The notes under the pieces are model-generated. The model was not told where the DNA came from. It saw nothing but the letters and a program-made list of their open reading frames with translations, and did no database searches. From positions 97,132,397 through 97,196,396 of the forward strand of contig CM097887.1 in NCBI GenBank assembly GCA_044892525.1: a stretch of DNA of 64,000 nt. Reading direction: 5' to 3'. Positions 19,201-64,000 of the stretch are shown here, piece by piece; position 1 is the first letter of the stretch; each line of letters opens with the position of its first letter. The DNA comes from Schmidtea polychroa (lineage: Eukaryota). The position numbers were made by a program, and so were the translations under genes.

Positions 19201-22200
19201 GAGAGATGTTGTAGTCTTATTTAATTATTTCGTTTTTGAACATTTTTAGGAGAAAAAATTATAAAAAAAGCCGGAACACTGGTGGCCATTGGTAAGATGG
19301 TTTAATATAATATTTGAAATAGAGTAATTCAAAGAATATTCAAGGAGAATAGAGTGAAGTTAGTTAGTGAATCAAGTCAATTAAATATGTACCAGAAAAG
19401 GCGGTTTTCCTTTGGAAATACTTACTTTATCATTTTCTATTTGAAGTGCAGATAAAAGTAAAATTTATTTTTGACAAAATTGTTAAAAAATTATTGTGAA
19501 ATTAAACAAAATGTATAATGTTGGATCTTATTGTTTTAATTTAATTTTTATTTTTAATTCAATAATATTACTTTAAAAAATCCTTTGCACCCTTCACAAG
19601 ATTTAACTCCATAATGCTGACAAGATGCAGAATCTCCACAGACTAAACACAATTGGTCGTCATTCATATCTTCGTTGTCACTGATGATCATAGTTTCAAT
19701 TTTATTTTCACTATTATTCTGGGATGATGTCGAAGATAACTGTGACAATTCCGGTGAAAACTTTGTCGTACCAATTTCATGATTTTGTGATATAATATTT
19801 TCATTTGGATTCATGGCAATTGTGTTATTCAGAATATTAAAGGCATTATAGTTTGTGAAATCCGTTTGCGCTTGTTGATATGTAACTGCATTATCGAAAA
19901 TACTGTCGGTTTTAATGAAAATCGGAACGCAATCTCGTTCAATGCTCTGACTGTCTTGGATAAGAATTTGCGTTCCAATAATTGGAATTTCATTTAAATT
20001 TTGAAAATTGACATTATTTTCAATTCCTTTGCTGAAAAAAATTTCCGAAAATAAAACAATTCTCAAAATGTAAAACTCTAGTTTAATATAAATAGATAAC
20101 AGAAAATATTTACAGTGGCGTAGCTAGAAATTTTATGCCCCCTATACTGCATACACAAGTGAAATAGGTGCGGACCACCATAGCGCCGCAGGTAAAAAAT
20201 TTCTTGGCCCCCTTTGGAAGCACAATTGAATTAGACCAGGGTTTCCCAAACTTTTCCTGCGACGGAACACTTCGTAACTCTCGAAAATTTGATGAAACAC
20301 CTTGTTTATTTTGTACAGTATGAGACCAGTGGCGTAGGCCTACCCAAGATTTTTTAAGGGGGAGGGGAGAGTGTTAATTGAAAGAAGGGCTTATAGTTAC
20401 ATAGGAGTTTTGCGCCGCAGGCAAAACATTTTTTTGGGTCCTCTTTGGAAAGATGATTTAATTAAAAAATTAGAGCTCAATATACAATATAACAGTATAA
20501 ATCGTTATAAAATGATAGTAATGTATCAGGGACAAATGTGTATAGCTGACAAGCGAAACAATTTTTTCGACCCCTATATGAATGGGCAATTTACTTAGAT
20601 AACCAAAGTTGCTTGCTTATACAGTATATTATTAGCGAGGGAGAGGCAGAGGGGATTGCATAAATAGGTAAAATGCAGGTAAATAATGTACTTAATGTAA
20701 TAAGTAAACAAAACAGTATAGCTTTATTACATAAAACCACAAATCGATCATTTGGAGGTCCCTGCTGACTGGTGCCGACCGTGCCGTTGTTTGGCATTTT
20801 TTTCTGAAGAAAATAAGGGAAATTTGGAAAAAAGGCCCCCTGTCTTGTGGGTCCCTATGCATTGCTTACTCTTGCTATATGGTAGCTACACCACTGAATA
20901 TTTATTTATCAATACAAAATGTGAAATTTTCCTTTTTTTGAAATTGTTGATTTCTTTACTTTTTTTTACTTTTCTGTTACTAATTTCTTCAACTTATATG
21001 TTTTTATTGAGAAAGTTTTAAACAATAATCAAATTAATAAAAAATTATTTATAAAGTGAAAATTTGTTTAAATTTTTAAATATGATATAATGGAGTAAAT
21101 TGAATATTACTATAAATTAGCAATTATATACGACTATCTGTATGGTTTAGTGAGGAAGAAAATACGAAATTTGTTTAAACGAATTGAAATTTTTAATAAA
21201 ATAATCAAAATCTTATTAATAATAATCCTTAACTTTCACAAAGAATATAATTAATAATTAAAATCATTCGAATATTTTTAAATATTAAATTATAAAACCC
21301 CAAATAAAACCTATAAAAATTGTTATAATAAATTTATTTACCGGTCGAATATTTTAACAAATATTTAAAAGTAATTCCTATAACTAGAAAGTAGGCAATT
21401 ATTTAGTAAGTAGTTCTCGTTTATTTATAGTCAGACATTGCATGTAAAAAGTTTTTTTTCCAAAAAAGTATCTAATCCTGCGCAAATATGAAAAGGTAAA
21501 CCCATTTTATGGATAATTATTCAATTGCGCAAATTCGTTAATACAATTTTAATTGAATAAATTCAAATTACGATTTTTTTCCCTCCAATTTTTTATTTGA
21601 TTGATTCAGTAAGAAAAAAGTTATTAAAAATTAATTATTAAATTTAAATTCCATGCAGGCAATTTTCAGCTGGACATGGAAAACTATCTAGTCCAAAAAT
21701 GATAACGAATCACTTATGACATTTAACCAGTTTTGCCCACAATTAAATAAAATTCTAGAAAGATATACATTTCTAGTGGGTTGTTGTAGATTTTTGTTTA
21801 AATATTGACAAATCAGATTTATTTATTCCTTCAAAATTTCAAGGAGATCGCATCGGTCTTGCATTTTCATGGCAGTTGATAAGTACATTTTTGTAATGCT
21901 AGCACACAGACAAGAAATACAGTTCATGATTCACGGACCTGCAACAGGATTTTACTTTAAAATTAATATCAGAAAATGGCAATTTTTTAGACATAGGTTC
22001 TATCAGGTCATCTAAATTTATACTTTGATCTTTTAATTTGTACAAATTTGATGGTTCCCTGTAAGACATAACTCTATTCTTGTATATAATTATTATTTAA
22101 CTTTATTTATACATTATGCTCGCGATCATATAGTCCTAAAATAAATATTATTTTTAATTGAAAAATTTTAATTTCTTGAAATCAAGCACAAATTCAGAAA

Positions 22201-25200
22201 AGAGCGCCTAATTCATAATAGGAGCAGTTTTTTTTGTTTTAACTGTTGTCAATTTCTATAAATTTTGGCATAAAAGGAGACTATGTGGTAGGAGGAATAT
22301 TTTAAATAAAATGTTCATGTCACCAAACGACAGAAAGCCAAATCAACAGACATTTATCAGGATATATCAAAATGGAACTTATTGAGATTAATAAGGAAAT
22401 GAAAATTAAATAATTGCTTTTTTGAAAATCATAATATATTGTAGAATAAATTTTTTAAAAACAAAATATACCAATAAAAACATCATTTTTTTAATCAACG
22501 AATTCTTGTTATAATAATTTGTTATAATCCTTTTCCTCATAAATTTTCCTTAACCCCTTGCGGTCCTACGTCGAGTCTGACTAGACATCGATTTTTTCCA
22601 CGCAGATGCTATGTCGAGTCTAACTCGACACTCCAATAATTAGTCATTGGAAGGTTCAGATTTCGTTGCATGTGCGATAAAAAATGGGAAAAAGCCAATG
22701 GATCATAAGAAATCGATAATGTTGAGTCTCGTTGGTAATTTCAGAGCACCCAGTAAAAAGTCAGGACGAACTCAGAAAGTCACATTTCATATATGCACAT
22801 CCTTTAGGAAAGAATAAAGATTGCATTGTTTGTTCCAAAAGGAACATCCCAGGTGGAAGAAGGGAGACAACGTACATATGCAACACATGTGATAGAAAGC
22901 CTGGTCTCCATTTAGGAGAGTGTTTTGAACGCTATCATACCCTTGGGCAATTCAAAAAATAATTTAAATGATTATTTATATTGTATGATTGTCAAAAAAA
23001 TAAAATTTTAATACCAAAAAATACCTTTTATTAAAAAGACCAAATTTAGTTCAAGAAATCATATATACAAAAAATTGTGGACCTGGTGGGTAACTTCTTT
23101 TTACGGATCGCAAAGGGTTAAATTTAATAAATAACATATAAACTAGTTCTCTCGACCATAAAGATAAAATGCTTCGCTCTAACCAACCTTTTACTTTTCT
23201 TCATTTTTATTTCTTTCCAAACTAACAAATAAATAAAATAGTGATCTATGTCTAAAAATAAATGAAAATAAATTAACGGTGAAAAAAAAGATTTACTGAT
23301 ACAAGGCTGGCCGTTTTTTTATGATTAAATTATTTGTTTTAATATTTTTAATATTTCTATTCTTAGTCAATTTTGGACATTTTTTTCCCAGTGCAACAAG
23401 CTAACTCACTAATTATTATTATTTTCTTCATTGATCCCTTAGTAAATTTAGTAATTGTGATAGATTCACACTTATTGAAGTTTTTTCCCATTTTTGTATA
23501 CGTCATCCGGAAACCTTCAAACTTAGTCTTTAAATAAATAAATATTTATCATTAAAAAATGTTAAAAATTTAAAAAAATAGCTAAATTCCTCAAAATAAA
23601 TTAATTATTTTAAAAGTTTTAAATTAATAAAGTAATTAAAAAAATGTTTCAAAAACTTTATTATTCTAAAATAAGCCTAGAAAAATTAATTTGCTCGAGT
23701 TATTTTTGGATACGTACTAATGAAATAAATATTCACATAATTATTCTAAAAATTTAACAATTATACAAATAGATGTGAAATTATTTTTTGTAACAAATGT
23801 ACAGATTGCCATTGGAAATAAAATGATTTACAATTCATTTCCCAAAATGAATAATCAACACGCAATTTGTGATAATATGGTCACATTTTTTGCTTTAGAA
23901 TTTTTGTTGGGAATTAAAAATGATCTAAATGTAAACTGGTGGAATTGTTGGCAACAATGGATTTATGTGTTGCAGAAAATTGAAATCAAAATAATGTTTA
24001 ATATTTAATATTCAAATAAAATTTATTTATTTACTTGTTTATTTATTTGTTTATTCTCATTATGATTATACATTAAAAATTAAAATTTCGACACTGCCTT
24101 TATCAAGTGTCATAATGAAACTAAATTGAAATTATTTATTTAGGTAAAATATAATTTTATATTTAATATCAAATTTTTTCACAGATTTCCTCTGGAACTT
24201 CTAATTCTGCAGATCAATTTTAAAAGATTTTTGGAGCATTTTTTACCACAAATAAAAAAGAGGTTCAGGTCCAGAAGTTACCGTTAAACTTACACTTAAT
24301 TATTTGTGTAAAAATATTACCTAGAATTATATTTTTATTAAATTAAATTAAATATTATTCAAAATAGTAATCAGATTTGGGGCAAAACTAATTTCAATGT
24401 CGTTTACAAAAATTTAAACACATAATTTAGATAAATTTTCTTTAATTTTGTATATAACAATATTTATACAGATGGTTTAGTGTAGGATTAAAATTTTATT
24501 TATTTATAGAAATCTTTATTACATTTATATGTGAAACTTATAAACAAGAAGTCAATAAAAATATATAGATAAAAATGATTAAAATTCATAATTATACAAC
24601 CATTATAAATTANNNNNNNNNNNNNNNNNNNNNNNNNNNNNNNNNNNNNNNNNNNNNNNNNNNNNNNNNNNNNNNNNNNNNNNNNNNNNNNNNNNNNNNN
24701 NNNNNNNNNNNNNNNNNNNNNNNNNNNNNNNNNNNNNNNNNNNNNNNNNNNNNNNNNNNNNNNNNNNNNNNNNNNNNNNNNNNNNNNNNNNNNNNNNNNN
24801 NNNNNNNNNNNNNNNNNNNNNNNNNNNNNNNNNNNNNNNNNNNNNNNNNNNNNNNNNNNNNNNNNNNNNNNNNNNNNNNNNNNNNNNNNNNNNNNNNNNN
24901 NNNNNNNNNNNNNNNNNNNNNNNNNNNNNNNNNNNNNNNNNNNNNNNNNNNNNNNGGAATGGATTTGATATCAAATTGTATTGCATATTGTTAATTGGAA
25001 TAATGTTTGAAGAGTTGTTTGAATTAACTGGTAATAACTGAGAATATGAATAATTGTTGATCAGTTCGTTTTGAGTTATTTGACTTTTTTCCAAAAGACT
25101 ATCAAAACTGGCTTTATCAATAATAACATATGACAAATTTGGGTTCATATTTTCATTGACAATTGAGCACTGATACTTTTGATCGTTCTTATCATACATA

Positions 25201-28200
25201 TTTGAATCTAGATTTAGTTCGGAATGGATATCAGTTTTTGTGTCAATTCTTTGTAAATTATTTTGAAGAGATTTTTCACTGACATGTGGAGAGTGAGGTA
25301 AGTCTTTTAACTGATTTTGTTGATTATCATGATATAACGAATTTGGTGTTTTGTTGAATAAGGAAAACCTAGAGGTTTCCTTTGTTGGAACATCTGATAA
25401 TGAAGGAGAAAGGAGAAATGTTTCATTTGATAGACCGAATTCAGCTGACAAGGAATCGGTTGTCACTATTGAATTCAATTCATAATCACTTGATAAGATG
25501 GACTGACTGAGGCTATTTGAATTGGAAAATATCCATTCGTTCTCACTTTCAGTCTGTATTATATGCATAAAGTTAATATGAAATTTTATTTTATAGAAAA
25601 AACATAATGTAACTCTATCTATCTATTTATTATAATTTAATTAACATTTCCTGATATTTTATTGCCATTTCGCAATTGTAATGTTCATGTAAGACTTAGA
25701 AATGTAGAATTAAATTTAAGTTTTATATTTCTTAGTCGTAAATTGTCAATAAAGATATCTCACATTTAATCAAAGACTGAAAAATGCCATTACTCTGTAA
25801 ATTTTCGACCATTATTTTTTCTTATGATAGGACTTTAAAAAAACCTTCCTAAAATATGCAAGATTTTCAAATTGAAAATATACAGATAACATATTTTATA
25901 CTAATTCCATAAAATAAAATGTTTTGCATGTAAAAGAAAAGTTAAAATATTTAAAGTCTAATTAATTTAATTTAATTGTAATAAATTTAAAATATTTATT
26001 GATCTTTAAAGTAATTATTAAAGATTAAATTTCTATTATTGAAACTTTAAAATACCTTTTACACTAACGTTTCTCAACCAGGGTCTACATGGCCATTTTA
26101 AAGAAATTAAGTAACCCTCCAAAATTGATATTGAATTACATTGTAATGCTGCGTATTATTTTTTATAACAATAAAATGATAATTTAAGCCTTTTGCTGCA
26201 AATAATGTATTTAATGAAAATATTTTCGACTATAAGATAGTCCTTTGACAAGGACTATCTTATAGTCGAAAAATCTTTTCATTAAATACATTATTTGCAG
26301 CAAAAGGATTAAATTATTATTTTATTGTTTTAAATAATAAATGCTGCTACAAAGAAATCATCATTTTATATTTTTTATAACATTNNNNNNNNNNNNNNNN
26401 NNNNNNNNNNNNNNNNNNNNNNNNNNNNNNNNNNNNNNNNNNNNNNNNNNNNNNNNNNNNNNNNNNNNNNNNNNNNNNNNNNNNNNNNNNNNNNNNNNNN
26501 NNNNNNNNNNNNNNNNNNNNNNNNNNNNNNNNNNNNNNNNNNNNNNNNNNNNNNNNNNNNNNNNNNNNNNNNNNNNNNNNNNNNCTTGGTAGCAGCATTA
26601 ATTAAATTTTAAAACAATAAAATGATAATTTAAGCCTTTTGCTGCGAATAATATATTTATGACGAATGAAAAAAATTTCGATTATATGATATCCCGTTTC
26701 AATAAAATCCCGAAACAATTTTACTGGAAACTCGATTGAGCTCAATAAATTTCTGTCACAACCACATATTATTAAAACAATATAAAAAATACCATTTTTG
26801 AACCAATACATACATGTATATATACATATGTGGAAATAAATATTGGCGTTAAATTATTTAAAAAATAATAAAATCAATACAAAATAAAATCTCTTTTGTA
26901 AAATTTAATTACAAAAAGAATATTTAACTTCAATCGATTAAATTCGATAAAAAATAAATAAATAAAATTATAAGAACTTTTTTCAATTTTCAACACTGAT
27001 TTCTTTGCAATTGCCATTGTATTTATTTAAAAGCTTGACTATGAATCAGTAAAGATATAAAAAAAATACATCGATATATATAGTCAAAAATTTTCTAATA
27101 AATATAATATCAAATAAATAAGAAACATAAAAAGAAAAACATTTGGTAAAGGAACAAAGAATTAAAAAATATTTTATTCGAGATTTTGATTCAGAACGTT
27201 TGGAATATTTTCATCACAATTTATTTTATTAAACTGATTTGATTCAATTGTCTATAAGTTTAAAATATTTAGTTGTCTTTTCCTGATAAATACAACTTAG
27301 CAATGTTCCGTTTTAGCTTAAACGTGAATTCTACCCTTTCAATTCTTTTTTTTATTTCTGCCAGAGGATTGTCAATAACTCCATAATATGTATATACATA
27401 TAAATTCATATATCTGTCAAAAATAGTGGTCGGTGTAAAGCTTTCGTTGAGTTACTGTTTTATCTTGTGTTATCTGGCTATTTTAAAGTCGAAACAACCA
27501 GATAGTTTAATTCCGATTTTTTTTAATAATTAAAGGATTCTGGGCTTCGTTAGTTCAACTCCAACTTCAATATTTAGATCAAATTTTTGTAATGTTTTAC
27601 TTACACAATTAAATTTATCTCAAACATCGAACCNNNNNNNNNNNNNNNNNNNNNNNNNNNNNNNNNNNNNNNNNNNNNNNNNNNNNNNNNNNNNNNNNNN
27701 NNNNNNNNNNNNNNNNNNNNNNNNNNNNNNNNNNNNNNNNNNNNNNNNNNNNNNNNNNNNNNNNNNNNNNNNNNNNNNNNNNNNNNNNNNNNNNNNNNNN
27801 NNNNNNNNNNNNNNNNNNNNNNNNNNNNNATGACTCATTCAAGGTCAAATATATAAACAGCCTGGAGTTCCTGTATGGTATTTCCCACAACCTTCACCTT
27901 TGAAGTAGTAAAATATGATTAAAATTTATTTTTTAGTTATTTTGTTATTTTATATTTTATATTTTGTATTCTGCTGAACAAATTTTTGTGTCGAATGACA
28001 GGGGGAAATGTCCGGGAGGAAATGTTTAGGGTGGAAAAGGTATGGGGGAAATATCCAGTTGAGAAAGGCTGTGGGGGTGTCCATGGGGAAAGACAGGGTG
28101 AAAATGTCCAGGGGAGAAAGGCTGTGGGGGATGTCCAGGGCGGGATTATCCTGTTCCCATTATAACAATGTTTTTTGATGACCGTTACAAAACTGTATAT

Positions 28201-33205: not shown

Positions 33206-34131
33206 TCATTTTGTTATATTAATCTTGTAAGCTTTTGTCCAAATATCTGTTAGGCAAATAGAGGAATGGAATCTAAAAAATATTATCAATGGTAAGAGGG
33301 TGTGAGTTATAATGCTCCATGGGGTTTTCTGGTAATATTTAGTAAATATCAAATGTTCATCCGCCCGTTTGGCCTCAAAGATGCTCACAGTCCATAGTGC
33401 CAGATTGGTAACAATTAAAAATGTTACAAGAGATCTTCCAGGCTTGACTCTCACATCGTGGAAACTCTGAGCACATTTTCGTGAACTTTCCAAAACAAAC
33501 AAAACCTGCAATAATGACTGAATAATTTCTGTCATTGATTTGCACAAGAACAAAATGATCGGTAACGAATATTTACTTTTGTCCAATTTATTTGATGAAT
33601 CAATTGTGGAAATAAATAAAAACAAATTGTACGCAAAAACTCCAGCAAGTCCAACTAACAGCAGGTTATCATCCAAAGCCTCTTCTTCTGATAGTTGACA
33701 AAAACGAAGTACTCTCATTTTAATGAAAGCGCAAACCAGAGCAATTGAACTCGAAACCAGAAGAATTATTTCTGATACTTGGTAAACCATAACTGCCAAA
33801 GTTTGTGTTTTGTCATTTTTTTTAAATAAAAGAAAAATAGCCAGTCCAACAAGCGTAACCATAAAAAATAGTAGGCCTACAAAGAGACCTTTGTGTGACC
33901 TATGACATTCAGAATATTTGATATTTTTTACCACGACTTGAGTTTGTAATTTATCGGTAGAATGCTTTTCATCGTGTTCATTACCAACCCTTTGAAGCAT
34001 TTTGTAAAAAATAGCTGCACTAATCAAACTATACTCGATAGCACAGGGAAACAGATACGGTGATACTGAATAGGACAATTGGTCTGTGCAAGTTTTGTTT
34101 TCATGAAGTATGGTAGTATTTCCATGAATAT
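33206..34131 (-). CDS. OTOP: Otopetrin last exon (C-terminal membrane domain)
   Basis: Part of ORF 33206-34273, starting after the acceptor ttctag at 34132-34133. Confidence 0.92.
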
Positions 34132-37100
34132 CTAGAAGACGAAAATTTAATGAAAAATTTGTTAACAATATTATAAAAATTTTTAAAAATGTTATTACCG
34201 AAAAAATATCACAGATATTCAAAACATTAAATAATTTTTTTACAAAATAAAAAGTTTGAAACACAACTGTCATTTATGCAATTATTTTTCAAATAATAAA
34301 TGTTTTAAATCCTATTTAACTAATAAAAATAACGAAAGGAAAATAAATTTTTAAATAAATATAAAATTAAAATTATGTTTTTACTCATTCAAACTTCTTC
34401 AGATAATTGTAATCGATTTGAATCTGATTTCTTACATGGCACATATGAAAGCGAAATAAGCTCAGAACTAATCTCCCATTAGAAATTATAGTGAATATTA
34501 CAACGAAATCAATATTAAATTAAACTCAAAAATATGAATTAATATGAATATGAAGTAAATATTTTTGCCGTTTGTTTAACCCTTTCCAGCCCAAATTTTT
34601 TCAAAACAAAAAAAAAATATATGCAGTAAGTAGGTACCAAAACTACTTATTTTATCATAAAAATATTTTACTTCATTTTTTTTGTTGCCCCCTGTGTCAA
34701 CTGTTAAAAACATATCTTACTATAGTTCTCACTAGTTACTGCCAACCGTTTTGGTAGTAGAGAGAAAAAAACTGAGTTTTTAACTAATGATTCCATTTGG
34801 AATCACTGGGCTGGAAAGGGTTAATTTTGAATTTTGTATTAAATAAATTTTTTTTAATAATAATTGTAAAGTGAATAACTGTAGGTTTACGGAATACAAA
34901 CGTGTTTAGTAATATAATATTATTGTATATTCTAAACACAGAAAATGTACAGTAAGGATCAATTAACATGCGTTGAGGCACAAATCTTTAACTTTTTATG
35001 GTTTCTTGTGTGGATTTTAGCCTTATTAAAACCAAAATAATTTCCTAAAAATCATGGTCTCAAAACGATTCTATTTTAACATGTTGACGACCATTTAAGC
35101 TATTGTCCCACAAAACAAAAATGAAAATATTCGCATTTTTGTCAAAGTGTTAAACAATATGGTTACAGGGGTTCAGATTTATGTTTATTGGCGATGGTGG
35201 CCGTCTACTATCTGTCTCCGTCGTCTATAAAATGTCAAACACTATGATTTTCAAAATCAATCTTAATTAATTTTATTTTAAAGTTTTACCTATGTAGCAG
35301 CAAGTAGAATTTCTGAAATAAATATAGGAATCATTTCTCCATATTTGTTAGTTTTTTAATTTCTATGCATAGAAGGACGATTTATAATTGTATAATGTTG
35401 GAAAAGTTGGTTTTTTGGTTTTTTGAACTGTGTCTCTCTGAGTTAAACTGAAGTATTGATAAAGACCTCGAAAGAAGAATGAAATGAAATTTCAAGACAA
35501 CATATTATAAAATATATTTTTTAAGATCAAACCGATTTTTCTTAAGTTAAAATATCGTATGCACGAGTAAATCTTGCCTCTATCATGTATGAATTAGGAA
35601 AGCCCTATAATAATGGTTCAACAGTTTCTTACATGCATGGATTGTTTTGATAAAATTCTACATATATATAAAATCCTCTAAATTTTTTCTGTGATTGCAA
35701 ATATGTTCGAGAATTATTTCTTGTATATCGAATTCATTTTTCGAAATTTTTGGCTGCTAGTGGTCTTTAATTTGATTATATTTATTGTATTAACAAACAG
35801 TTCTGCGTGACTATTGGTTCAATAGTTGTAGTGTGTTCGGGATTAAGATTTAATTTTTTTAGTTAAATACAGATTTGGACTCTAAAAGGTTAATATAGTT
35901 TTGTAAAACTAAAAACATGATAACCTCCGGTTTTATAGTGGGTAGTTGTGTAACGTTTACTATCTTTTTATAAGATGTTTATGTGAATTTTAAATTTAAT
36001 TTTCCACTCTTTTTTGTGAATAATTTTAATAATGTTAATATAATAATAATCTAAACCAGGGGTGGGCAAATATTTTTAAGCGCAGGCCAAAATGATATTT
36101 TCAAAATGTCTCCCGGGCCGGAGAACTATACCGCGTACGCACATGCGAATGTTTTGGGTGGAGTTTTTTTCCTGCCCAATAAATTGTCTTAATTGGGTGT
36201 ACATACGAGACTCAAGCGTTAGACGTGCGAGGTTGGTGTGCACAACCAATTATAGATGCGTCACTAACGTATCATAATGTATTTCTGATGTAGTTACTTT
36301 AATGAAATTATGTTTAATTTATGTTTAACAATTACGGCTGTTCGTAATTATAATACTGTCTATTATTTATATTTTTCATTATTTATCTGTACACTATGCA
36401 CACTAATATTGTTGATTTCTCCAAAATCGCATCAAAGAGATTTAAAAAATTCCATGCGGGATTTTCAACGGGCCGGCTTTTGCCGACCCCTGATCTAAAC
36501 TATGAAACTGTGTATATGTTTGTGGGTGTGTTTGCAATTAAAATTCAAAGTGAGTGATTAGCACTGAAATGTTTAGTTAGTGTTTATTTTTCTATTTTTC
36601 TAGTTTTTTTTGTTAAAAATTAAAATGGAGGAAGATGGTGATTTAAATATATTTCATTATTTTAACTATAAAACCCATATGTTTGTGAGTGAGTGGGTAT
36701 GTTTGCCACATTTACCTGTTTGCACAACCCAAACCGCTACAACTAGAACGTGATGCCAAAGCCGCAAACTAAGACATTTTTTCATAAATCTATACCTATA
36801 AAAAGGTAAATCATTCATTTATTCATTCATCTATCACGATATTTCCTAAACCGTGTAGCACGTCTCTACCATGGTGTGAGGTCATTCTGGTTGCTGTTCT
36901 CAACTGTGTGGTTTTCAACTTTCTCGTTAATAATAGTATAAATAATGGTAGTAATAAAATTATAAATAATCAGTATTATATAGAAAATTGTTATCTTATT
37001 ATTGAGATAAAAGAAAAAAATTTTAAAACGAAGAATTAACAGCAGTCTTCAGCAGTTCATATCATTGAATTTAACAGAGTTCATTTTATCCTAATTAACC

Positions 37101-53697: not shown

Positions 53698-54532
53698 CTT
53701 ATATCAACATTTTTCAACCGCTGGTTCGCGAGCTAATATTGGGTCGCGAAAAAAATAAAAGTGGTCCACGTACAAAGAAAAGATAGATTTTTGGTCCGCC
53801 TTACGTTTTGGGTTGAGTAACACTGCGTTAGATAATTTAAAGACGGGCAAATTGGAAATATGTCCATAACATAAGAGGTCGAGTATTTATCTCTGTTTAA
53901 TGGGATACTATTATGTAATAATTAATGTGCAATATGAGATATGATTCAGATATACAGTAATATACACAGTGTAGAACTGGGTTGGTCGAATTAAAGGCTA
54001 TGGGGCCGGCGATATCTGAACTATCAAATCATCATATATTTTTTCTGATTTAAAAAAAATAATACAATATATTAGATATGGCAATATTATACACTAAACA
54101 GTAAATGTCTGGAAAACAGTTTAGAAGAGCTAAATTACTATTGAAATAGCACTAACGGCTACAGTGTCAAATTTAATGGAAAAATTAAATGATTCAATGA
54201 AAAGATAGGACCACTTAAAAATCTATGCAAGATATATAGTATATAGTAAAATCTTATTTTACACGGTCTTTTTTTACACGATTTTGAAATAACACGGTTC
54301 GTCAAGAATATTTATTTTGCATATAAATTTGTTTTAACATTCTACACAAGTATTTTGTGTACGTAGTTTTTCTAAATTGAAAAGTATAAAAAATAGACTC
54401 TTCGTTGTCACGAGGTAATTTGCAGATTTTGATGCTTATAATGATAGAGAAGGATATTTTAGTCAACTGACATACCTACAAAATGATAGATAAAATAAGT
54501 TAAATGCTTTGGAGTAGGTAGAAGTGAGCCCA

Positions 54533-54975
54533 CGATGACTCATCGTTAAGGTCAACTTAAGGTCAAATTTTAAGGTCAATGTCATTTTCAGGTCAATTTA
54601 AGGTCAATTTAGGCCATTTTAAGGTCAAATTCTGAGGTCAAAGTCGATTTTAGGCCATTTTAAGGTCAAATCTTGAGGGCAAAGTCGATTTTAGGCTATT
54701 TTAAGGTCAACTTTTGAGGCCAAAGTCTAATTTTTCCAAATTTAAGGTCAAATTTTAAGGTCATAGAAAATTTTAAGGTCAACCCCCTACCCCCTACCCC
54801 TAATTTTAAGGTCATAGAAAATTTTAAGGTCAACCCCCTACCCCCTACCCCTATTTTTAAGGTCATAGAAAATTTTAAGGTCAACCCCCCTACCCCCTAC
54901 CCCTAATTTTAGGGTCATAGAAAATTTTAAGGTCAACCCCGCCTACCCATAATTTAAAGGTCAAATTGAGGTCAA
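54533..54975 (+). repeat. Array of ~19 (TTA)AGGTCA motifs in nested ~41-bp and ~51-bp tandem units, preceded by the palindrome CGATGACTCATCG
   Basis: Counted by eye. The 51-bp unit TTTTAAGGTCATAGAAAATTTTAAGGTCAACCCCCTACCCCCTACCCCTAA occurs ~3.5 times (54753-54950). One perfect AAAGGTCA at 54956-54963. Confidence 0.9.
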
Positions 54976-55056
54976 AAATTAAAAATTTTCTAAGTCCATT
55001 TAACGAATTACTTTATAGGAAATTTTCAAAGTCAAAACACGTTTTAATACTACGTT

Positions 55057-55140
55057 TGCAAATGTCTTTGTTACTCATGCATATGCATTGCAAATGTCTT
55101 TGTTACTTATGCATTTGTATTGCATATGTCTTTGTATTAC
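55057..55140 (+). repeat. 32-bp tandem repeat x2.6
   Basis: Unit TGCAAATGTCTTTGTTACT(C/T)ATGCAT(A/T)TG(C/T)AT. Confidence 0.8.
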
Positions 55141-55686
55141 ACACCTTAAGGATAGAAAAATATTTCTAAGCGAGATCTAAAGTGAATGTGTGTAAAGGGC
55201 AATAAATAAGGGTAAAATCAAAATTTTTTAAGAAAATACATGTAATTTGATTAAAATTTATGAAAACTATATATATATATTTGTTTTATTTTAGGCAGAT
55301 AATCTATGTGTGTCTGTATATGAAAACATTGATAAGGAGCAATAAATAAGGGACGGTTTTACTCACACACAAGTTTTATATCAATCGAAAGTCTACTATA
55401 TATAATACATAATTGAATCGAATCAAAATAAGGGCAAAATCAAAAATGGTAAAATAAAATGTTCATTATCAGACATTTTAAAAAATATATTTTATTTATT
55501 TATTTTAAATAAAAATATGTAATTATGATCATAGTTAATTTAAGCACATATTTATTTCACTTTTCACAAAATAATTTTAAAATACCACAACGTAATATAT
55601 TTTCTATCTTAATTTTAATTGGCTGGAGAATAAAGTATGCTTTTCATTATAAACATTTTCATTATTACGAAATAACTTTACAGATA

Positions 55687-55962
55687 ATGATCACAGACAT
55701 CGATTACGAAAATGGTATTTTCATTATTTTTTAATTCATTTTAATATATATATATATATTTTCTAGATAGCGATTGTGTCATAATTGAAGAACATTTTGT
55801 TACTTCGATACCTGCAAAAGAATATGGACGAAAAAGTTAAATAATAATAATTCATTGTTTATTCTTAATTGTCTTTTCCAGGAAATTTTAATGAGGATTC
55901 AGTTGCTGATTCTGTTGCTTATGCTGCTGGAACTATTGAATATTTCGCAAAGAAGATAAAAT
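55687..55962 (+). CDS. Small spliced orphan ORF (acidic, SIM-like motif); last exon uncertain
   Basis: Exons 55687-55714, 55767-55835 and 55882-55962 with 52-nt and 46-nt GT-AG introns stay in frame: MITDIDYENDSDCVIIEEHFVTSIPAKEYGRKRNFNEDSVADSVAYAAGTIEYFAKKIK; strong gtaagt donor at 55963. Confidence 0.5.
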
Positions 55963-56240
55963 GTAAGTAAATTACAAAATTTAACTTAGATTTCTAGTTC
56001 TATAGTTTTTTGTTTATGAAAATTTAAATAAGTAAAAAATGATATTTAATCAGATGTTAATATTTAGATGAATTTATTTAAATAAATTTCTTAAAATTAA
56101 TGAAAATTAGTAATATATAAATTATTAATTAAAATTAGTACAATGTTCAAATTTTAACTGAAATTATTTTTTAGACAATATTAATATAGTTATTGTTAGT
56201 TTATTTTAACTATATTACGATGATAAACTTTAATTTTATT

Positions 56241-56616
56241 CAGTACTCGAAGTGAGGCGGGATAGCCGGGATATTATCCCGGCATTGATTATGTAGGCGG
56301 AATTGCATCCCGGCACTTCATTTCATATAATCTATAGGTTTATCCCGGTACTTATTTCATTTTATAGGCACACAAATACTGCAATTAAGGTCACACATAG
56401 TACATCCATATATGTATGTATATATATATTCTTTATTCTCTATTCTCTATTCAATTAAGAATTTCCCAAGCAGCAGTAATGGATAGGTAGGTATTTGTTG
56501 GACACCCCCCAAAGTTTTGCAACACCCCCAACTGAAAATTTCTGCATAAAAGCCTGGAATCCCGGGTGCCACAGCATGCCTATCCCGGCACATATTTTGT
56601 TCCACTTCGAGCACTG
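56241..56616. mobile_element. 8-bp-TSD DNA transposon MITE (hAT- or P-like)
   Basis: CAGTACTCGAAGTG ... CACTTCGAGCACTG; TSD ATTTTATT on both sides; repeated TCCCGG subterminal motifs; an empty-site paralog lies at ~57015. Confidence 0.88.
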
Positions 56617-57858
56617 ATTTTATTATAAAAGTATAAATAAAACTTCATTTCAAAATCGAATTTTTATTTGCAATATTATTTTTACATTAATCAACTAAGA
56701 TGAGACTAATTTAAAATTTGATTGCATCACGAAACTTCTAGTATTTCATGTAAGTGAAATTAAAAGTATATATGGATTGTTAAATAATTAACATATTAAA
56801 ATAATATCTTTGTTTAAGAAAATTTAAAGTAGTAAAAAAAATGATATTTAATCAGATGTTTATTGGTAAATATTTAGATGAATTCATTTAAATAAATTTC
56901 TTAAAATTATTGAGAATTAGTAATATATTAAATAAAATTAGTACAAAGTTCAAATTTTAAATGAAATTTATTAGACAATATTTTTTTTTAACTATATTAA
57001 GACGATCAACATGAAATTTATTATAAAAAATGATGAAAGTATAAATGAAACTTCATTTCAAAAATATGAATTGTGATAAAAAAAATTGAACAATTTTGAA
57101 ATAACTAAGGGCATTCAATAATATTGTAACTCATTAAATAAAGTTTACATAGTAAGCTAAATGCTACCCTTGTCCATTTTTATGGTTTATAGAGGTGAAA
57201 AATAAATTTAGATGCACAATGAAATTTAAAAGTGTAAATCTATAAAAAGTTAAAATTTATAAAAAAAAATTGAAAATTCGAAAAAATTAAAAATTGATGC
57301 ATGTATGTACGTATGGCAAATAAAAAGACTAACACAAATACAATAAAATCAAATCATCGAGGATATCCACTTAATGATTTATTTTATGAATGATTATAAT
57401 TGATTTTATCTTATTTTGAATTTGAATAAATAATTGAATATATCGGGGACAAATTAACTTAATTATAAATTTTAATATATTAATAATTTTGGAATAATAA
57501 TAATTAAGATAAATGATAATCAATAGAGATAAATGAATTACCGATAATATAAATGAAATTCAATATTATAAATAAACCATATAATTAAACCATTTAATGG
57601 TTAAAAATAAATAAAACATAAAATAATAAAATAAATATATTATAAAATTAAATAATTCTTTTTTATATTGCATTTCGCTATATAAACCAAGATCAAAATC
57701 AACCTTTCCGCCCATAAAAAATATAAACTTTTGAGAGATGTTTATTGTTAAATATGTTTAAAAAGAAACATAATAAAGCAATTGTAATTATTTAAGGCAA
57801 TTTATACAAACAATGTTGCACCGCAAAAGAACATGATGGGAAACAATGCCATGATGCA

Positions 57859-60800
57859 ATGGAAAAATACTATTTAAGAAATTATTATAATAAAAAATAT
57901 TATTTATGCCCGTTTTGCGAAGCTCTTTTCACTAAGCCCTATGAAATATTTTATAATGATCACAAAGATCATCTTACATATTTTAAATCGGATAAAAAAG
58001 AATTTTTTAAAAAATTATTTAATAACGGTATAATAGACGTACCTACTAAAAAACAAAAACTTAATGATAACATCATCATTATAGATGAATCTGATGATGA
58101 TGTTATCGTTATAGGTGAATCAGGGAATTTTTTAAATTATCAAATTGGTTGTGGATCAACTAATATGATAGAAGATATTGAAGAATCAGTGGAAGAACCA
58201 GTGGAAGAACCAGTGGAAGAACCAGTGGAAGAACCGGTGGAAGAACCGGTGGAAGAACCAGTGGAAGAACCAGTGGAAGAACCAGTGGAAGAACCGGTGG
58301 AAGAACCAGTGGAAACGGAACAAATAGTAGAAGAGGACAATATATGGGATGATTTCCAGATTGTTAATGAATGGGAACCTACTGAAGAAGTCGAGATTGA
58401 ATCTGACTTGAAAAATTGTCATAAAACAATTAAAATGTCGTTCAAAAACATGAATGAGATAAATCTACACGAAACTTTCTCTGAGAAACTATTATCTACA
58501 ATCAAGGAGATGAAAACTGTGAAAGTTCAATTCGGGATAGAATGTGATTTCGAAAAAGATGGAGAATTCCAATCATCAAGATTTTCTAACAAAGCGGTGA
58601 TGGTAACTGAGAACAATTTTGAAAAGTTTATTGCAGATGGTATTGAAAAGCTGCACGAGAAAATTCATATCAGATCGTCTGATAAGAATAATTGAAATAA
58701 ATTTCAAAATAACTAAGATTTCCGAAATATCCAGATTATCCGGAAGAAATTATATTCCAACTCCGAAAGCCTTAATAAATAAAAATGCATTAATAAATGT
58801 GATCAATGGAGATGATATGTGTTTCATATACAGTGTGCTAGCCAATTTGAAAAAAGATATCATTATGGCTGATAATACAAATGTTGAAAATTATACACAG
58901 TTCTTGTCCGAATTGGTATATAATGAATTAGATATGCCAATGAAATTGAAGGACATTTCAAAATTCGAAAAGCATAACGAAGGAATTGCTATCAATGTCC
59001 TCAGTTACAATCCTAAAAATATGATTGATATCGATAATGTGGATATTATAATGAAACATCCACATATTGATATAATACATCGGACTAAAGTAACTGGGGT
59101 TACACCGATGTATTTACTATTGTTAGAATCGAATGGCCAATACCACTATACTGCAGTTCCAGATTTACAGCGATTAATGAATTGTAGAAAAACTCATAGT
59201 TGCCCAGTCCGTATTCAATGCAGATGGTGCGAGACATGTTTAAATGGTTTTAGAAGAGAAGATGCTTTTGACAGGCATGTAGCTTTATGCAAGAAAAACC
59301 AATTGGGCACAACATTATACACGTTGCCAGAAATCTCAGATTTAAAATTTAATGACTGGTCAAAAATGGTAACTCCGCCTTTTGTTATATATGCTGACTT
59401 CGAAGCTGTTTTACCACTTGATGAAAGACAACACCAAAAACATTTACCTATAGCAGCGGGGCTGTTACTGGTAAATAATTTTACTGGGTCAACGAAATAT
59501 AGTCATTTTATTGGACCAGATTGTGTATACAGATTTCTGATGGATGTAGAAAATATTGTCAACAATATAGTGAAGGTTTATTATAAGACAAGAGGGCATT
59601 GTCAAATGAAATTTTTGACAAATCAGGAAAAGCTGCAATTCCACACAGCAGTCAATTGTTACTTGTGCAAAAAGCCAATGCCAGAGAAAGTGAAAGACCA
59701 TGATCATTTCACTGGCAAATATCTCGGAGCCTCATGCAATGTATGCAATCAACAAAGGAAAATCAGAGAAACATTACCCATCGTATTTCATAATCTGAAA
59801 GGGTATGATCTACATCACATTTTGAAATATGGGCTCAATCAACTTCCTCATTGGAGTCTCAGCTGCATACCAACAAGCACAGAGAAATTTTTAACATTGA
59901 TAGCATGGCTGGGTAAATTTACAATAAGATTTATTGACTCATATCAGTTTGTCAATACTTCATTACATAATGCAGTAAAAACATTGAACGACTTGCCTTT
60001 GACCCGTTCAGTATTCAATACTGCAACCATCATAAACAACAAAGGAATTTTTCCTTATGATTTTGCCACAAGTGAGGAAATATTAGAAACAACATATGAA
60101 TTTCCCGCTATTTGGGAAGGCGTTACAAATGAAGAGTATATAATAGCGCAACAAATATGGCAAGAAACAAGTTGCGAAACTCTAATGGATTATTTACAAA
60201 TTTATTTAAAACTTGATGTGTTTTTACTTGCCGATTTCTTCCAACAATTTCGAGCAAGATCAAAAGCACATAATGGACTCGAGCCACTCAATTTTTTTGG
60301 AATCCCTGGAATGTCTTGGGCATCTGCGCTCATGACCTTAGAAGAACTACTGATGAACTACTGATGGACATGGAGATGTATAATTTCTTCGAGGGTGGGA
60401 TCCGTGGTGGTCTCACATTTGTAAATAAACACTTCGCTGTAACAGATGATGAAACAGAGTTGCTTTATATTGATATAAACAACCTGTACGGGTGGGCGTT
60501 AAGCCAATACTTGCCATGTAGCGATTTTGAGTGGATATATAATGAAGTGGAATTATTATCCATTTTAGTTGACTGTATTAGTTCCAAACTAGAAAATTTA
60601 ACTTATGGATACACATTGGAAGGTGATTTAGTCATCCCGTCTAATATCCACGATCTATTAGACGATTTCCCAGTCGCAGCAGAGAAAATGTGTCCACCAG
60701 ATTCCACTGTACCAAAATTATTATTAACCCATTATGCGAAAACTAATTATGTTATTCATTGGAGACTTTTGAAATTATATATGGCCCTCGGAGTGGAAGT

Positions 60801-61747
60801 CACCAATATACATCGTGCAATAAAATTTACACAAAAGCCGATATTGAAGGATTATATCAACACAAATACCCAACTTCGAGCTGAATCACAAAATAGTTTA
60901 GATAGAGATTTTTATAAACTTTTAAATAATAGTGTTTACGGCAAGACAGTGGAGAATCTGAAGAAAAGAATAAATCTGAGATTGTGCAACAATGCCGAAA
61001 AATTGGTTAAATACACTTCAAAGCCAACATTTAGACGTTCAATTAAAATTGCTGATGATTTAATTGCCCTTTTGCTGAATAGATGTAGTTTGTTTAGATA
61101 GGCCTAGCTACATTGGTCAAACAGTGCTAGACTTATCTAAACTTAGAATGTATGAACTACAGTATATTGAACTGTCAAAATATCGAGCACAGTTCAATTG
61201 CCAAATAAATATCATAGCCGGGGATACAGACTCATTCTTCCTCGAATGTAAATATGTCAAATTGCGATCACAATTACTTCCTGCAATGATTGCTGACGGA
61301 TTGTTAGACACCAGCAACTACGATCCTACAGATCCATTATATTCACGAAATTTGGATTCTGTAATTGGGAAATTCAAGGACGAAAACAAAGGCAAATCAT
61401 ATCAAGAATGGGTATTCCTCAGACCCAAATGCTATAGTTTGCTAACTTGTGATAATGATACTATAAATAAAGCCAAAGGTGTATCATTAAAGGGAACAGA
61501 AATCACACATCAATCGTATGTGGATTGTTATCTTGGAATGCGTATACCGAAGGTGAATCAATCCCGGTTTGGTACACGAAACCATCAATTATTTACATTT
61601 AGAACTAAGAAGGTAGCCCTTACAAATAACGATGATAAAAGGGTTTGGGTTGAAGAGAACAAGAGCTTCGCATATGGGCATTATAATATTTTAGATAATG
61701 AATTAAATAATATTTTGCCTCTTGATGAATCATCTGCAGACGAATGA
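57859..61747 (+). pseudogene. pPolB: Protein-primed family B DNA polymerase (Polinton/adintovirus type) split by three frameshifts
   Basis: ORFs 57859-58695, 58619-60364, 60316-61101 and 61124-61747. Exo I YADFE, Exo II FHNLKGYD, Exo III YLKLDVFLL; pol motifs YIDINNLYG, KLLNNSVYGK, GDTDS, LRPKCYS, KAKGV, DDKR; endonuclease-VII-like insert KDHDHFTGKYLG. Confidence 0.93.
58189..58308 (+). repeat. 12-bp coding minisatellite x10 encoding (VEEP)10
   Basis: GTGGAAGAACC(A/G) x10, in frame within the PolB N-terminal ORF. Confidence 0.97.
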
Positions 61748-62266
61748 TAATGATTAATGGTAATGATTTATCCGTTTTATTTTTAAAAATATTTTTATTT
61801 TTATTTTAGTTTCTGCACAGTTTCTCCAGTTTTGACACAGTTTCTGAACAGTTTTGAAAAGAGATGAGATCGAACCACCAATATAATGATTCATTTGTAA
61901 CTTTTGTAATGGTACTTGTTGTAACCTATTTAATTGTCCTTTTAATGCATATTGGTTCTCATAATTATGTTTATTTTTATTGCGTTGTTTCTCTTTTGAG
62001 TCCTAAATATGTTATTGTGAATGTGTATACGTCCTCTTTAGGATTGCAAATATTGATTGCATTTATTGTTGAGAAACGATTATTATTATTATTATTATTA
62101 TTATTGTTATTATTATTATTTTTATTATTATTATTTTTATTATTAATATTAATAAATTCATGGCTCAAAATATATATATATATATATTTTACATTTATTA
62201 TACATAATTCAGTAACGACTTCGTTTAAATAAAGTAACACAACATTTTTTTTTACAATACATTTAT

Positions 62267-62609
62267 TTAACAAAGATGTTTATACATTAGCCAAGCTAGA
62301 CAATGTTGTCCACAAGTATTTGTTAATGGATGTTGAAACCGAGTTTTATTGTAATCAACTTGACCAATAATTGATAGCTTTTTGATCAATAGGGCTGGAT
62401 AGTAAAATCCCATTGGATCGAAAACATATATTTTATTCTGCTTCACGTAGACTGCAATCCAATGTTCTCCTCCCAGAGTAGACGAATCTGTGTTGACAAT
62501 TATGGCTTGATTCACATCTAAATAGGGGATTTTGTCTAGTGGGTACACTCCAACAAACTCATTAATTATATTTGAGTACCAATTCGATTTATCTGAATAG
62601 AACTAACAT
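62267..62609 (-). CDS. Adenain-like (C5-type) cysteine maturation protease of the Polinton; probable frameshift near its 5' end
   Basis: FVGVYPLDKIP, IVNTD....GEHW, VFDPMG, FQH...TCGQHC provide the His/Asp/Gln/Cys catalytic set. The in-frame ORF lacks an ATG; the nearest ATG (62609) is out of frame. Confidence 0.85.
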
Positions 62610-62673
62610 AATAATTTTATTAGTTTAAAGAAAACTTACTCCATGATAAATGTTTCTAGATTTATTCACACAT

Positions 62674-63894
62674 TTATACCAGCACAGTTCTATTTGCAGT
62701 AATTTGAACTTCATTTTCAAATACTCCATATATAATGACATGTAACGGTTCAGTAATGGCTCTTGCAAACTTTATATCCAGTCGTAAATTCCCGTTTTGT
62801 GGTAATTGACTCTGATTTAAATCAAAATCGGGGGCTAAAACAAATGTAAAAAATGGGTATTTGGTTTTAAATTCTTCAAGAGTTATTCCACAATTTAAGT
62901 TTTTATCTAAATAACCCAAATTTCTAACAATACTCTGCATATATGTAGCACAGTAATTATCACTTTCAAAATCTTGAGTATATGTTTCTCTATAATCAGT
63001 ATTTTTAGACAAAGTCAGTGATGTAACACCAAAGTTTTTGAAAATTGAGCTGGATGTAGTATATGATCCGTTATATTGAGTTTCACTTTGAAATGTTATC
63101 AGGATAAAATTAGGCATTCTTCTGTCACCAAATATTTGTTCTTTATAGAATGATGAAGCACCTTTAGCAATAGCGAATTGTACAATTTCCTTTGTCTTTA
63201 ATGGATAAATTGCATGTTTTGAATTAAGACCCCATTGATGACCAGCTAATACTGACGGGTCTACTCGAACTCTTCTCACCAATAATTTTGCATCAACTAA
63301 TTGACATATTGGTGCACCTGCACTAGTAAGAGATAATGCAGAATCTGATCTTTTCAGTCTAATATGTACATTAACTGCAGGGAGTAAATATTTCGGCTGA
63401 TCCATAAAGTCGAGTTGTAATGATGAGCACATGGTGAATATTTTTGAGCCTTTAACCCACTTTTTTCTTTCATCATCTGATGCTGCATAACCCATAGGAG
63501 TAAGACATGTATTTTTAGTATCGGAATTGTAATTTAAAATAGTTTCTATCAAGGCCTTGTGAATGAATGTATTATTTCCACCCTCAATCTTGATATTATT
63601 AAATCCCAACACTGCATCTTTAAAAAGAGTATGAAACATGAAATTGTTCGGTATTACATCTGCATTGGCATCCAAAACCTTTCTATCTTTATCTACAACC
63701 TTGATCTGAACAGTCAATAATGTATCGTTCAAATCTAAATATTCAGTTTGCGAACCATTAATATAAAACTCGATATCATTTCTACTATCGGTAATTGAAT
63801 TCATAGGAAAAACTTCCTCAAAGGCCCCAAATTCTATTACCGCTTGAGGCGACGGTCTATCAAATATACATAATTCGGATTTACCACAAATCAT
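62674..63894 (-). CDS. Polinton/adintovirus major capsid protein (double jelly roll, 'hexon'), intact 406 aa
   Basis: N-terminal KSELCIFDRPSPQ...IEFYI.GS..EYLDL and C-terminal GNLRLDIKF...IIYGVFENEVQI match the Maverick MCP pattern; lies next to the protease gene. Confidence 0.88.
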   Translation of the reverse strand: MICGKSELCIFDRPSPQAVIEFGAFEEVFPMNSITDSRNDIEFYINGSQTEYLDLNDTLLTVQIKVVDKDRKVLDANADVIPNNFMFHTLFKDAVLGFNNIKIEGGNNTFIHKALIETILNYNSDTKNTCLTPMGYAASDDERKKWVKGSKIFTMCSSLQLDFMDQPKYLLPAVNVHIRLKRSDSALSLTSAGAPICQLVDAKLLVRRVRVDPSVLAGHQWGLNSKHAIYPLKTKEIVQFAIAKGASSFYKEQIFGDRRMPNFILITFQSETQYNGSYTTSSSIFKNFGVTSLTLSKNTDYRETYTQDFESDNYCATYMQSIVRNLGYLDKNLNCGITLEEFKTKYPFFTFVLAPDFDLNQSQLPQNGNLRLDIKFARAITEPLHVIIYGVFENEVQITANRTVLV

Positions 63895-64000
63895 TTTGCA
63901 AATATAGTTCCATGTCCTTTCATTCGTTTGTTTATACGTGATATTCCATGTCTTTTACGTTTTGGAACATAATCTGGGGCTGGCTCTTTTTGAAACATAC
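63891..64000 (-). CDS. 3' end of a basic, core-protein-like ORF overlapping the capsid start codon (partial)
   Basis: ...MFQKEPAPDYVPKRKRHGISRINKRMKGHGTIFAK*; its TGA overlaps the capsid ATG (ATGA at 63894-63891). Confidence 0.6.
   Translation of the reverse strand, partial: MFQKEPAPDYVPKRKRHGISRINKRMKGHGTIFAK

Follow-up and report, generated by a model that had tools for sequence, protein, structure and literature searches.

At the right edge of the 64,000-nucleotide stretch of Schmidtea polychroa DNA analysed here (contig CM097887.1, positions 97,132,397 to 97,196,396; hereafter the window) lies the left half of a virus-like element, and the locus raises two questions: what this element is, and how the same structural genes came to be found in one genome between three different sets of ends, each with a polymerase of its own. 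An earlier note, made from the letters of the window, had read the element as a Polinton/adintovirus-like virus, and that interpretation is supported: a complete though decayed insertion of a Polinton (Maverick), of the family here named A, has its left half in the window. The second question is probably answered by a single gene cassette that spread recently, by recombination, over three old backbones, in each of which the polymerase would be tied to its own ends.

The Element in the Window

The complete element measures 17,049 bp, made up of positions 54513..64000 of the window and a further 7,561 bp to its right. Coordinates prefixed L011 count from the start of the 10 kb lying directly right of the window. 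The features, including the terminal inverted repeats (TIRs), the target site duplication (TSD) and the open reading frames (ORFs), are as follows.

54507..54512, no strand: left copy of the TSD, CTTTGG; the identical hexamer follows the right end at L011:7562-7567
54513..64000, no strand: left-half span of the Polinton, the window part of the 17,049-bp element
54513..55348, plus strand: left TIR, a type A end starting AGTAG, with internal tandem units
55687-55714, 55767-55835 and 55882-55962, plus strand: three likely leader mini-exons of the polymerase, from frames, phases and splice dinucleotides
57797..61747, plus strand: main exon of a protein-primed B-type DNA polymerase (pPolB) with an endonuclease-VII-like domain (PF03175, PF02945)
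62267..62644, minus strand: adenain-like protease (PF00770, above cut-off), with a likely 37-nt intron at 62603-62639
62674..63894, minus strand: major capsid protein, predicted double jelly roll, 406 amino acids, intact; TATAAAC 42 nt upstream
63891..64000, minus strand: 3' part of a basic, core-protein-like ORF of 120 amino acids that begins at L011:253
L011:246-1313, minus strand: penton candidate by position, 355 amino acids
L011:1259-2416, minus strand: rve integrase with chromodomain (PF00665, PF13683, PF00385)
L011:1885-2028, minus strand: likely GT-AG intron of the integrase, 144 nt, within its QTDxGKEF motif
L011:2478-2968, minus strand: ORF which we take to be PZ/pX-like, frameshifted in this copy
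L011:2978-3616, minus strand: A32 ATPase, 212 amino acids (PF04665, above cut-off)
L011:3790-4254, plus strand: TBP-like gene (PF00352) with a premature stop here, 154 amino acids in sister copies
L011:4419-6751: accessory ORFs, including a conserved 139-amino-acid ORF and a weakly Bcl-2-like two-exon gene (PF00452, under cut-off)
L011:6847-7561: right TIR, followed by the TSD at L011:7562-7567

The penton apart, the element is a true Polinton by each defining feature tested. Polinton TIRs span 100-1,500 bp and start with AG; those found here measure 836 bp on the left and 715 bp on the right, begin with AGTAG, and are 81% identical with the same outer 40 nt, their differences in length sitting in repeat arrays. 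When the genome was searched with the 221 bases surrounding the left end, the matches of other copies began at base 54513, exactly where the earlier note had placed the start of the element. Where Polintons have TSDs of 5-8 bp, the 6-bp CTTTGG flanks both ends, and of 53 copies in which both ends were present, 50 have a perfect 6-bp TSD. The gene set comprises pPolB, rve integrase (PF00665, E 1e-7), adenain-like protease (PF00770, E 5e-7), A32/FtsK ATPase and double-jelly-roll (DJR) capsid; the integrase, the ATPase and the right TIR all lie beyond the window, as had been anticipated. Thus the right TIR, the CTTTGG duplication, the integrase, the ATPase and the DJR fold, which had been set beforehand as checks, were all found as predicted.

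The polymerase and the protease had been placed on the plus and minus strands, respectively, and both are there, though broken in this copy. The polymerase was identified by partial hits to PF03175 (E 6e-13 and 5e-12), and its endonuclease-VII-like domain by a match to PF02945 just under the cut-off (E 7e-5). Exo and Pol motifs occur in the polymerases of all three families. Adintoviruses have an OTU-fused PolB of the Alpha (pfam03175) or Beta class; here, Cys and His motifs were noted that, by eye, we take to be OTU-like. In the window the gene lies in four pieces with three frame changes, the pieces being 90-98% identical to the polymerase of a sister copy; the protease is frameshifted near its 5' end, and the PZ-like and TBP-like genes are broken as well.

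The capsid ORF is intact over its 406 residues, as first described, and its product is by prediction a double jelly roll: AlphaFold2 gave a pLDDT of 91.6 from an alignment of 112 sequences (a single-sequence fold reached 32), and a Foldseek search with the model returned an iridovirus major capsid protein at E 2.6e-17, as well as those of PBCV-1, mavirus and Sputnik. The basic ORF is indeed coupled to it, its stop overlapping the capsid start codon as ATGA; no Pfam match to this ORF was found. The expected penton on the right can be given as a candidate assigned by position alone, with no match in Pfam or by PDB sequence search. Two tandem penton-like genes were seen within one element in the metagenome loci L169 and L170.

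Two broader statements of the earlier note fared less well. At 781 Mb, the genome is not compact; its four large chromosomes, low GC content and tiny introns fit a planarian. The proposal of an undescribed lineage agrees with the absence of any informatively named sequence among the 120 best capsid homologues and with the distance to the nearest named polymerases (29-33% identical); this comparison left Repbase families aside, and a named family may exist there.

One Cassette between Three Sets of Ends

When the genome was searched with the capsid, 102 of 5,007 candidates were scored as matches; each of them is 97-100% identical and free of stops. Copies were fetched for 30 of these 102 and for 30 places, mostly the first listed, from lists of end pairs spaced 12-18 kb apart (10 C, 14 B and 6 A). 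The ends fall into three types, A, B and C, which have only AGTAG in common and are nearly fixed within a type. Exact matches numbered 89 for A, 1,691 for B and 672 for C (reversed controls, 0); these are counts of ends, not of elements, and they include gene-less B elements and C pairs 250-650 bp apart.

Among the 53 copies with both ends, the type of the polymerase was that of the ends in all 35 that bear a polymerase (13 A, 12 B, 10 C). The remaining 18 copies (1 A, 16 B, 1 C) have none, and eight of these retain the cassette. The A polymerase faces the capsid genes convergently, as in six outside loci, whereas the B and C polymerases share the strand of the capsid. At set length thresholds, all ten core frames tested were open in 10 of the 53 copies (6 B, 4 C, 0 A).

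The families differ greatly in some genes and hardly at all in others. Between families, the polymerases are 55-56% identical in amino acids overall and 58-60% in the core, with a synonymous difference of 0.80-0.83 (uncorrected, as are all such values here; three pairs each for the polymerase and eight for each cassette gene). The capsid, core, penton candidate, integrase, PZ, ATPase and TBP-like proteins are 87-98.7% identical, with synonymous differences of 0.03-0.23; within this range, the ATPase is 96-99% identical, the TBP-like protein 95-96% (synonymous 0.03-0.07), and the capsid 97-98.5% (synonymous 0.17-0.21, non-synonymous 0.007-0.013). The border is abrupt: at the 3' end of the capsid gene, nucleotide identity jumps from 73-75% to values of 94-96%. 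It falls between capsid and protease for A and between protease and polymerase for B against C, the synonymous difference of the protease being 0.72 for A against B or C and 0.27 for B against C. The right arms differ too; those of A and C are about 70% identical near the Bcl-2-like gene, and B gave no match to that gene.

Trees were built with FastTree from 26 polymerase and 33 capsid homologues, taken from listings of 120 each. The three polymerases group in a single clade, as a trio without internal order, each branch being about 0.54 long; the capsid branches were about 0.01-0.02. The simplest reading of these values is that three old lineages recently exchanged their central block.

An exchange of the polymerase only, on one backbone, followed by change of the ends and right arms through repeat turnover and without any functional lock, is unlikely. 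It has precedent in documented swaps of pPolB (PMC10748475), the ends do contain unstable tandem arrays, and the inversion of the B and C polymerases relative to the outside loci is what an insertion could give. Turnover of repeats fits poorly, however, with ends that share a mere five bases between types yet hardly vary within one, or with right arms that also differ. Moreover, the A protease travels with the A polymerase, the polymerases of the three families share a clade in which their branches are deep and equally long, and the TIRs of the nematode elements stayed conserved across their swap (PMC10748475).

Ectopic recombination or gene conversion among integrated copies, the elements being self-copying transposons that lack any free or packaged stage, we judge improbable. 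Occasion for it would come from nested insertions, from inverted rearrangements and from a copy number that counts of ends put above a thousand, and the elements are known from genes, with no particle or episome in evidence. Set against this is the purifying selection on the capsid between families, seen in the values given above; it fits continued packaging, as does the observation that structural genes are open in most young copies. Each type, furthermore, spread as a uniform family after the exchange.

Scarcely credible is a three-way split with no exchange at all, in which polymerase and arms merely diverged faster and the GT-AG inserts described below represent microsatellite decay. The part of it that concerns rates is largely refuted: synonymous sites are saturated only outside the cassette, and at three outside loci with both genes the capsid is 54-57% and the polymerase 46-53% identical to these families, so that unequal rates of the genes cannot account for the gap between them.

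Several other kinds of copies were seen. Gene-less elements of 13.5-17.6 kb with B-type ends, mostly with perfect TSDs, have one non-coding arm in common (L115-L118, L123-L124, L129-L132 and L147-L152), and in seven further B copies the capsid cassette is kept and this arm replaces the polymerase. Many C-type end pairs lie 250-650 bp apart (e.g., G000, C1:83985-84300) and resemble miniature inverted-repeat transposable elements, as minimal derivatives. More distant Polinton pieces, neighbouring or nested, occur at L043-L044, L053-L054 and L077-L078, with more divergent cassettes or polymerases (TBP-like protein about 62%; polymerase about 74% identical to that of type C), so the genome contains further Polinton families.

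Likely Introns in Core Genes

The genes for polymerase, protease, integrase and the Bcl-2-like protein each likely contain introns, and for the first three the signs in the DNA are strong. Ahead of the polymerase, the three leader mini-exons all end in phase 1 and are separated by GT-AG introns of 52 and 46 nt; a likely intron of 1.8 kb leads from the third to an acceptor before 57797. Splicing there would create a cysteine codon, and by eye several homologues have Cys at that position. The mini-exons are kept in other A copies, the TA tract of the first intron varying in length. In B and C, too, an acceptor stands at this point of the polymerase; the sharing shown with A ends there, as no convincing match to the leader peptides of A was found in either. 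The leader is likely spliced to the main exon.

In the protease, an ATG and two further bases are followed by the likely intron and the main exon. Every one of the 50 protease-bearing stretches of the genome lacks an in-frame ATG in the protease; in 49 of them the ATG and its two bases run into GTAAG, and an AG in frame comes 33-37 nt later. From metagenomic relatives, 49 loci were fetched, several of them near-duplicates, and the protease motif was located in 32. Twelve of the 32 have the same layout, with introns of 37-43 nt and different interiors, and in three of the twelve there is some in-frame Met upstream as well; another 19 show an ordinary in-frame ATG, and one is ambiguous. The relatives in which this donor and acceptor position recurs have capsids about 46-58% identical. 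A GT-AG intron after the protease start codon, common to distant relatives, is likely.

The integrase insert, 42-177 nt long, lies at the Gly of QTDxGKEF and has GT-AG borders in 45 of 46 copies. An intron gain is likely here, because the motif is unbroken in 11/11 relatives (one degenerate row was dropped). A repeated TTAGGT brackets the insert (L011:1885-2028 and sister copies), as if an AG|GT proto-splice site had been duplicated to give rise to it.

It is on these inserts that the idea of microsatellite decay would have to rest: those of the integrase and the Bcl-2-like gene are ATT microsatellites, and in all 21 B copies the length of the integrase insert is divisible by three. Such decay would leave unexplained, however, why an in-frame ATG is missing from the protease in all 50 stretches, why its donor and acceptor position recurs around different interiors in distant relatives, and why the integrase insert splits a motif that the relatives keep whole and breaks the frame in 7 of 46 copies. 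ATT/TA microsatellites inside the likely introns were seen to vary in length.

Contigs assembled from three presumed-RNA runs and one unlabelled run cover a B copy, the joints coming mostly from the unlabelled run; in this mapping the integrase insert region was skipped as a repeat. A literature search, with subscription papers and supplements outside its scope, found no paper on introns in animal Polinton core genes. Introners have been described in dinoflagellate Polinton-like proviruses (PMC11957031).

A TBP-like Gene and the ATAAAC Box

TBP consists of two full pseudo-symmetric repeats that bind a TATA box; in the TBP-like protein, it is the C-terminal repeat that matches. The protein has 97 homologues, and in the 40 of these that were aligned motifs are kept in both halves. 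On 7 of 23 outside loci of at least 3.3 kb, a TBP-like gene shares the locus with a related capsid gene, and a scan of IMG/VR with the TBP-like alignment gave one match, weak and partial. Recent capture of a host TBP is unlikely, the best match being 51% over 41 amino acids. Several host-type TBP paralogues (L204-L207 and three further places) outscored the element-borne copies in the searches.

In a survey of one copy from each family, ATAAAC was found no more than 70 nt upstream of 7/7 starts, those of the capsid, core, penton candidate, integrase, PZ, ATPase and 139-amino-acid ORFs, and TATAAAT precedes the protease and Bcl-2-like genes. No box was found ahead of the polymerase main ORF or the TBP-like gene in these three copies. 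The background amounts to 37 ATAAAC sites in 34 kb, both strands counted, and the motif lies ahead of the capsid in 15 of 21 relatives. An early-to-late switch may thus act through putative binding of the TBP-like protein to the box. No paper on a Polinton TBP with its box was found in the literature search, supplements being outside its scope.

A Proposed Mechanism

In adenovirus and phage phi29, replication is protein-primed, and the polymerase and terminal protein read the end of the genome as an origin. The match of polymerase and ends fits replication of this kind, and a functional lock between them may be proposed. The rve integrase would require only the common AGTAG tip and hence could serve all three families, and the protein-primed polymerase with its terminal protein would read the family-specific end as a replication origin. 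Hybrids would then survive only with matching polymerase and ends, and fold-back (panhandle) copying after a crossover would equalise both ends. Copies that have these ends but no genes, or no polymerase, would have been moved in trans.

Expression would likely proceed in the nucleus in two steps, the polymerase and TBP-like genes early and the boxed genes late. The TBP-like protein is suggested as the switch that turns on the late genes carrying (T)ATAAAC because the polymerase and TBP-like genes lack the box that precedes the late genes. The host spliceosome would likely be needed for the transcripts of the polymerase, protease, integrase and Bcl-2-like genes. Whether all this amounts to true nuclear viruses with a programme like that of adenoviruses, with a spliced early polymerase, a TBP-like switch acting on a TATAAAC late promoter of its own, a splice-gated protease, origin-locked polymerases and a free packaged stage, still running in this host, in which the three types recombined and so came to share the cassette, is more doubtful, and we advance it tentatively.

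Against the spread of one cassette over three backbones, with the mechanism just outlined, several points have to be weighed. Splicing, expression and a free or packaged stage are predictions from DNA and genes, either the cassette or the polymerase may have moved in the exchange as far as trees without a rooted test go, and mutually nested elements allow a purely chromosomal route to chimeras. The sample of copies, drawn from hit lists, is non-random, and a rare copy with mismatched polymerase and ends could escape it. The first 40 nt of the left and right ends agree at only 28-30 positions in four B copies, and because of such differences homogenisation of the ends is evidently not always complete. 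For the intron gain in the integrase, the in-frame length of the insert throughout the B copies is a further point, and for the switch the N-terminal repeat of the TBP-like protein, which is shortened and was unmatched by HMMER.

Relation to Known Elements

The element resembles vertebrate Mavericks in its size (theirs is about 17 kb), in TIRs starting AG and a 6-bp TSD, and in the presence of pPolB, rve integrase, adenain-like protease, A32 ATPase and DJR capsid (PMC8097293). Intact vertebrate copies are described there as intronless, the copies in a genome averaging 22 and the intact ones numbering 38 at the most, unlike the likely introns in four genes, the TBP-like gene and the approximately 2,450 ends of three types found here. 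As in nematode Polintons (PMC10748475), structural genes that are almost identical accompany polymerases that differ within a single genome, and an HNH/endonuclease domain lies inside a polymerase. The nematode pPolB1 and pPolB2 are 16% identical, were proposed to come from different phyla, and left the TIRs unchanged, whereas here three sister polymerases each have their own ends and orientation.

Adintoviruses likewise combine an animal host with adenain, PolB, integrase, FtsK, hexon and a Bcl-2-like accessory gene, and transfer of a virion module between PolB lineages has been proposed for them (PMC8502044). In the available part of that paper neither introns nor a promoter box are mentioned, supplementary maps aside, and there and in its preprint TBP appears only as a figure-legend label on MELD viruses. 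Among Polisuviricotina, replication and morphogenic modules reassociate, and rare near-identical morphogenic blocks occur with different replicases, the recent cases being single contigs (bioRxiv 10.64898/2026.10.13.758929). In contrast, three whole multi-copy families are involved here, with mapped breakpoints and co-segregating ends, and the integrase goes with the capsid block and not with the replicase.

Module exchange among Polintons is therefore already known (PMC10748475; PMC8502044; bioRxiv 10.64898/2026.10.13.758929), as is the abundance of Polintons in planarians (PMC8532177; bioRxiv 10.64898/2025.12.11.693146). What is new is the sharing of a cassette by three families with co-segregation of polymerase and ends, the mapped borders, and the likely introns in core genes; the literature search, with supplements outside its scope, found no paper on such co-segregation or on an exchange in which the ends travel along.

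Adenoviruses are alike in protein-primed replication from inverted ends, a spliced polymerase leader, maturation by a protease, an early/late programme and panhandle repair of ends. To our knowledge, they are without integrase and TBP, and the Polinton here is known by its genes.

The genome bears on whether animal Polintons really replicate off the chromosomes, whether they form particles and how their genes are expressed. Its hundreds of young copies, with three natural combinations of polymerase and ends on one capsid background, allow direct tests of polymerase-origin specificity, of module exchange and of late-gene control. An intron present in the protease throughout a clade would, if true, overturn the usual annotation practice of treating Polinton core genes as free of introns, and would account for proteases that were missed or called broken.

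Neighbouring Features of the Window

Elsewhere in the window, the coding region of a Ty3/gypsy-type long terminal repeat retrotransposon with frame breaks occupies 13571-16941 on the plus strand, where gag zinc knuckles and protease, reverse transcriptase, RNase H and integrase motifs were recognized by eye. An exon ending in a nuclear-receptor zinc-finger motif, which we take to be NR4A-like, lies at 19554-20123 on the minus strand, with a further exon probably at 24603-25622. An exon of an otopetrin-like host gene (PF03189, Atlas score 0.94) is found at 33206-34273 on the minus strand.

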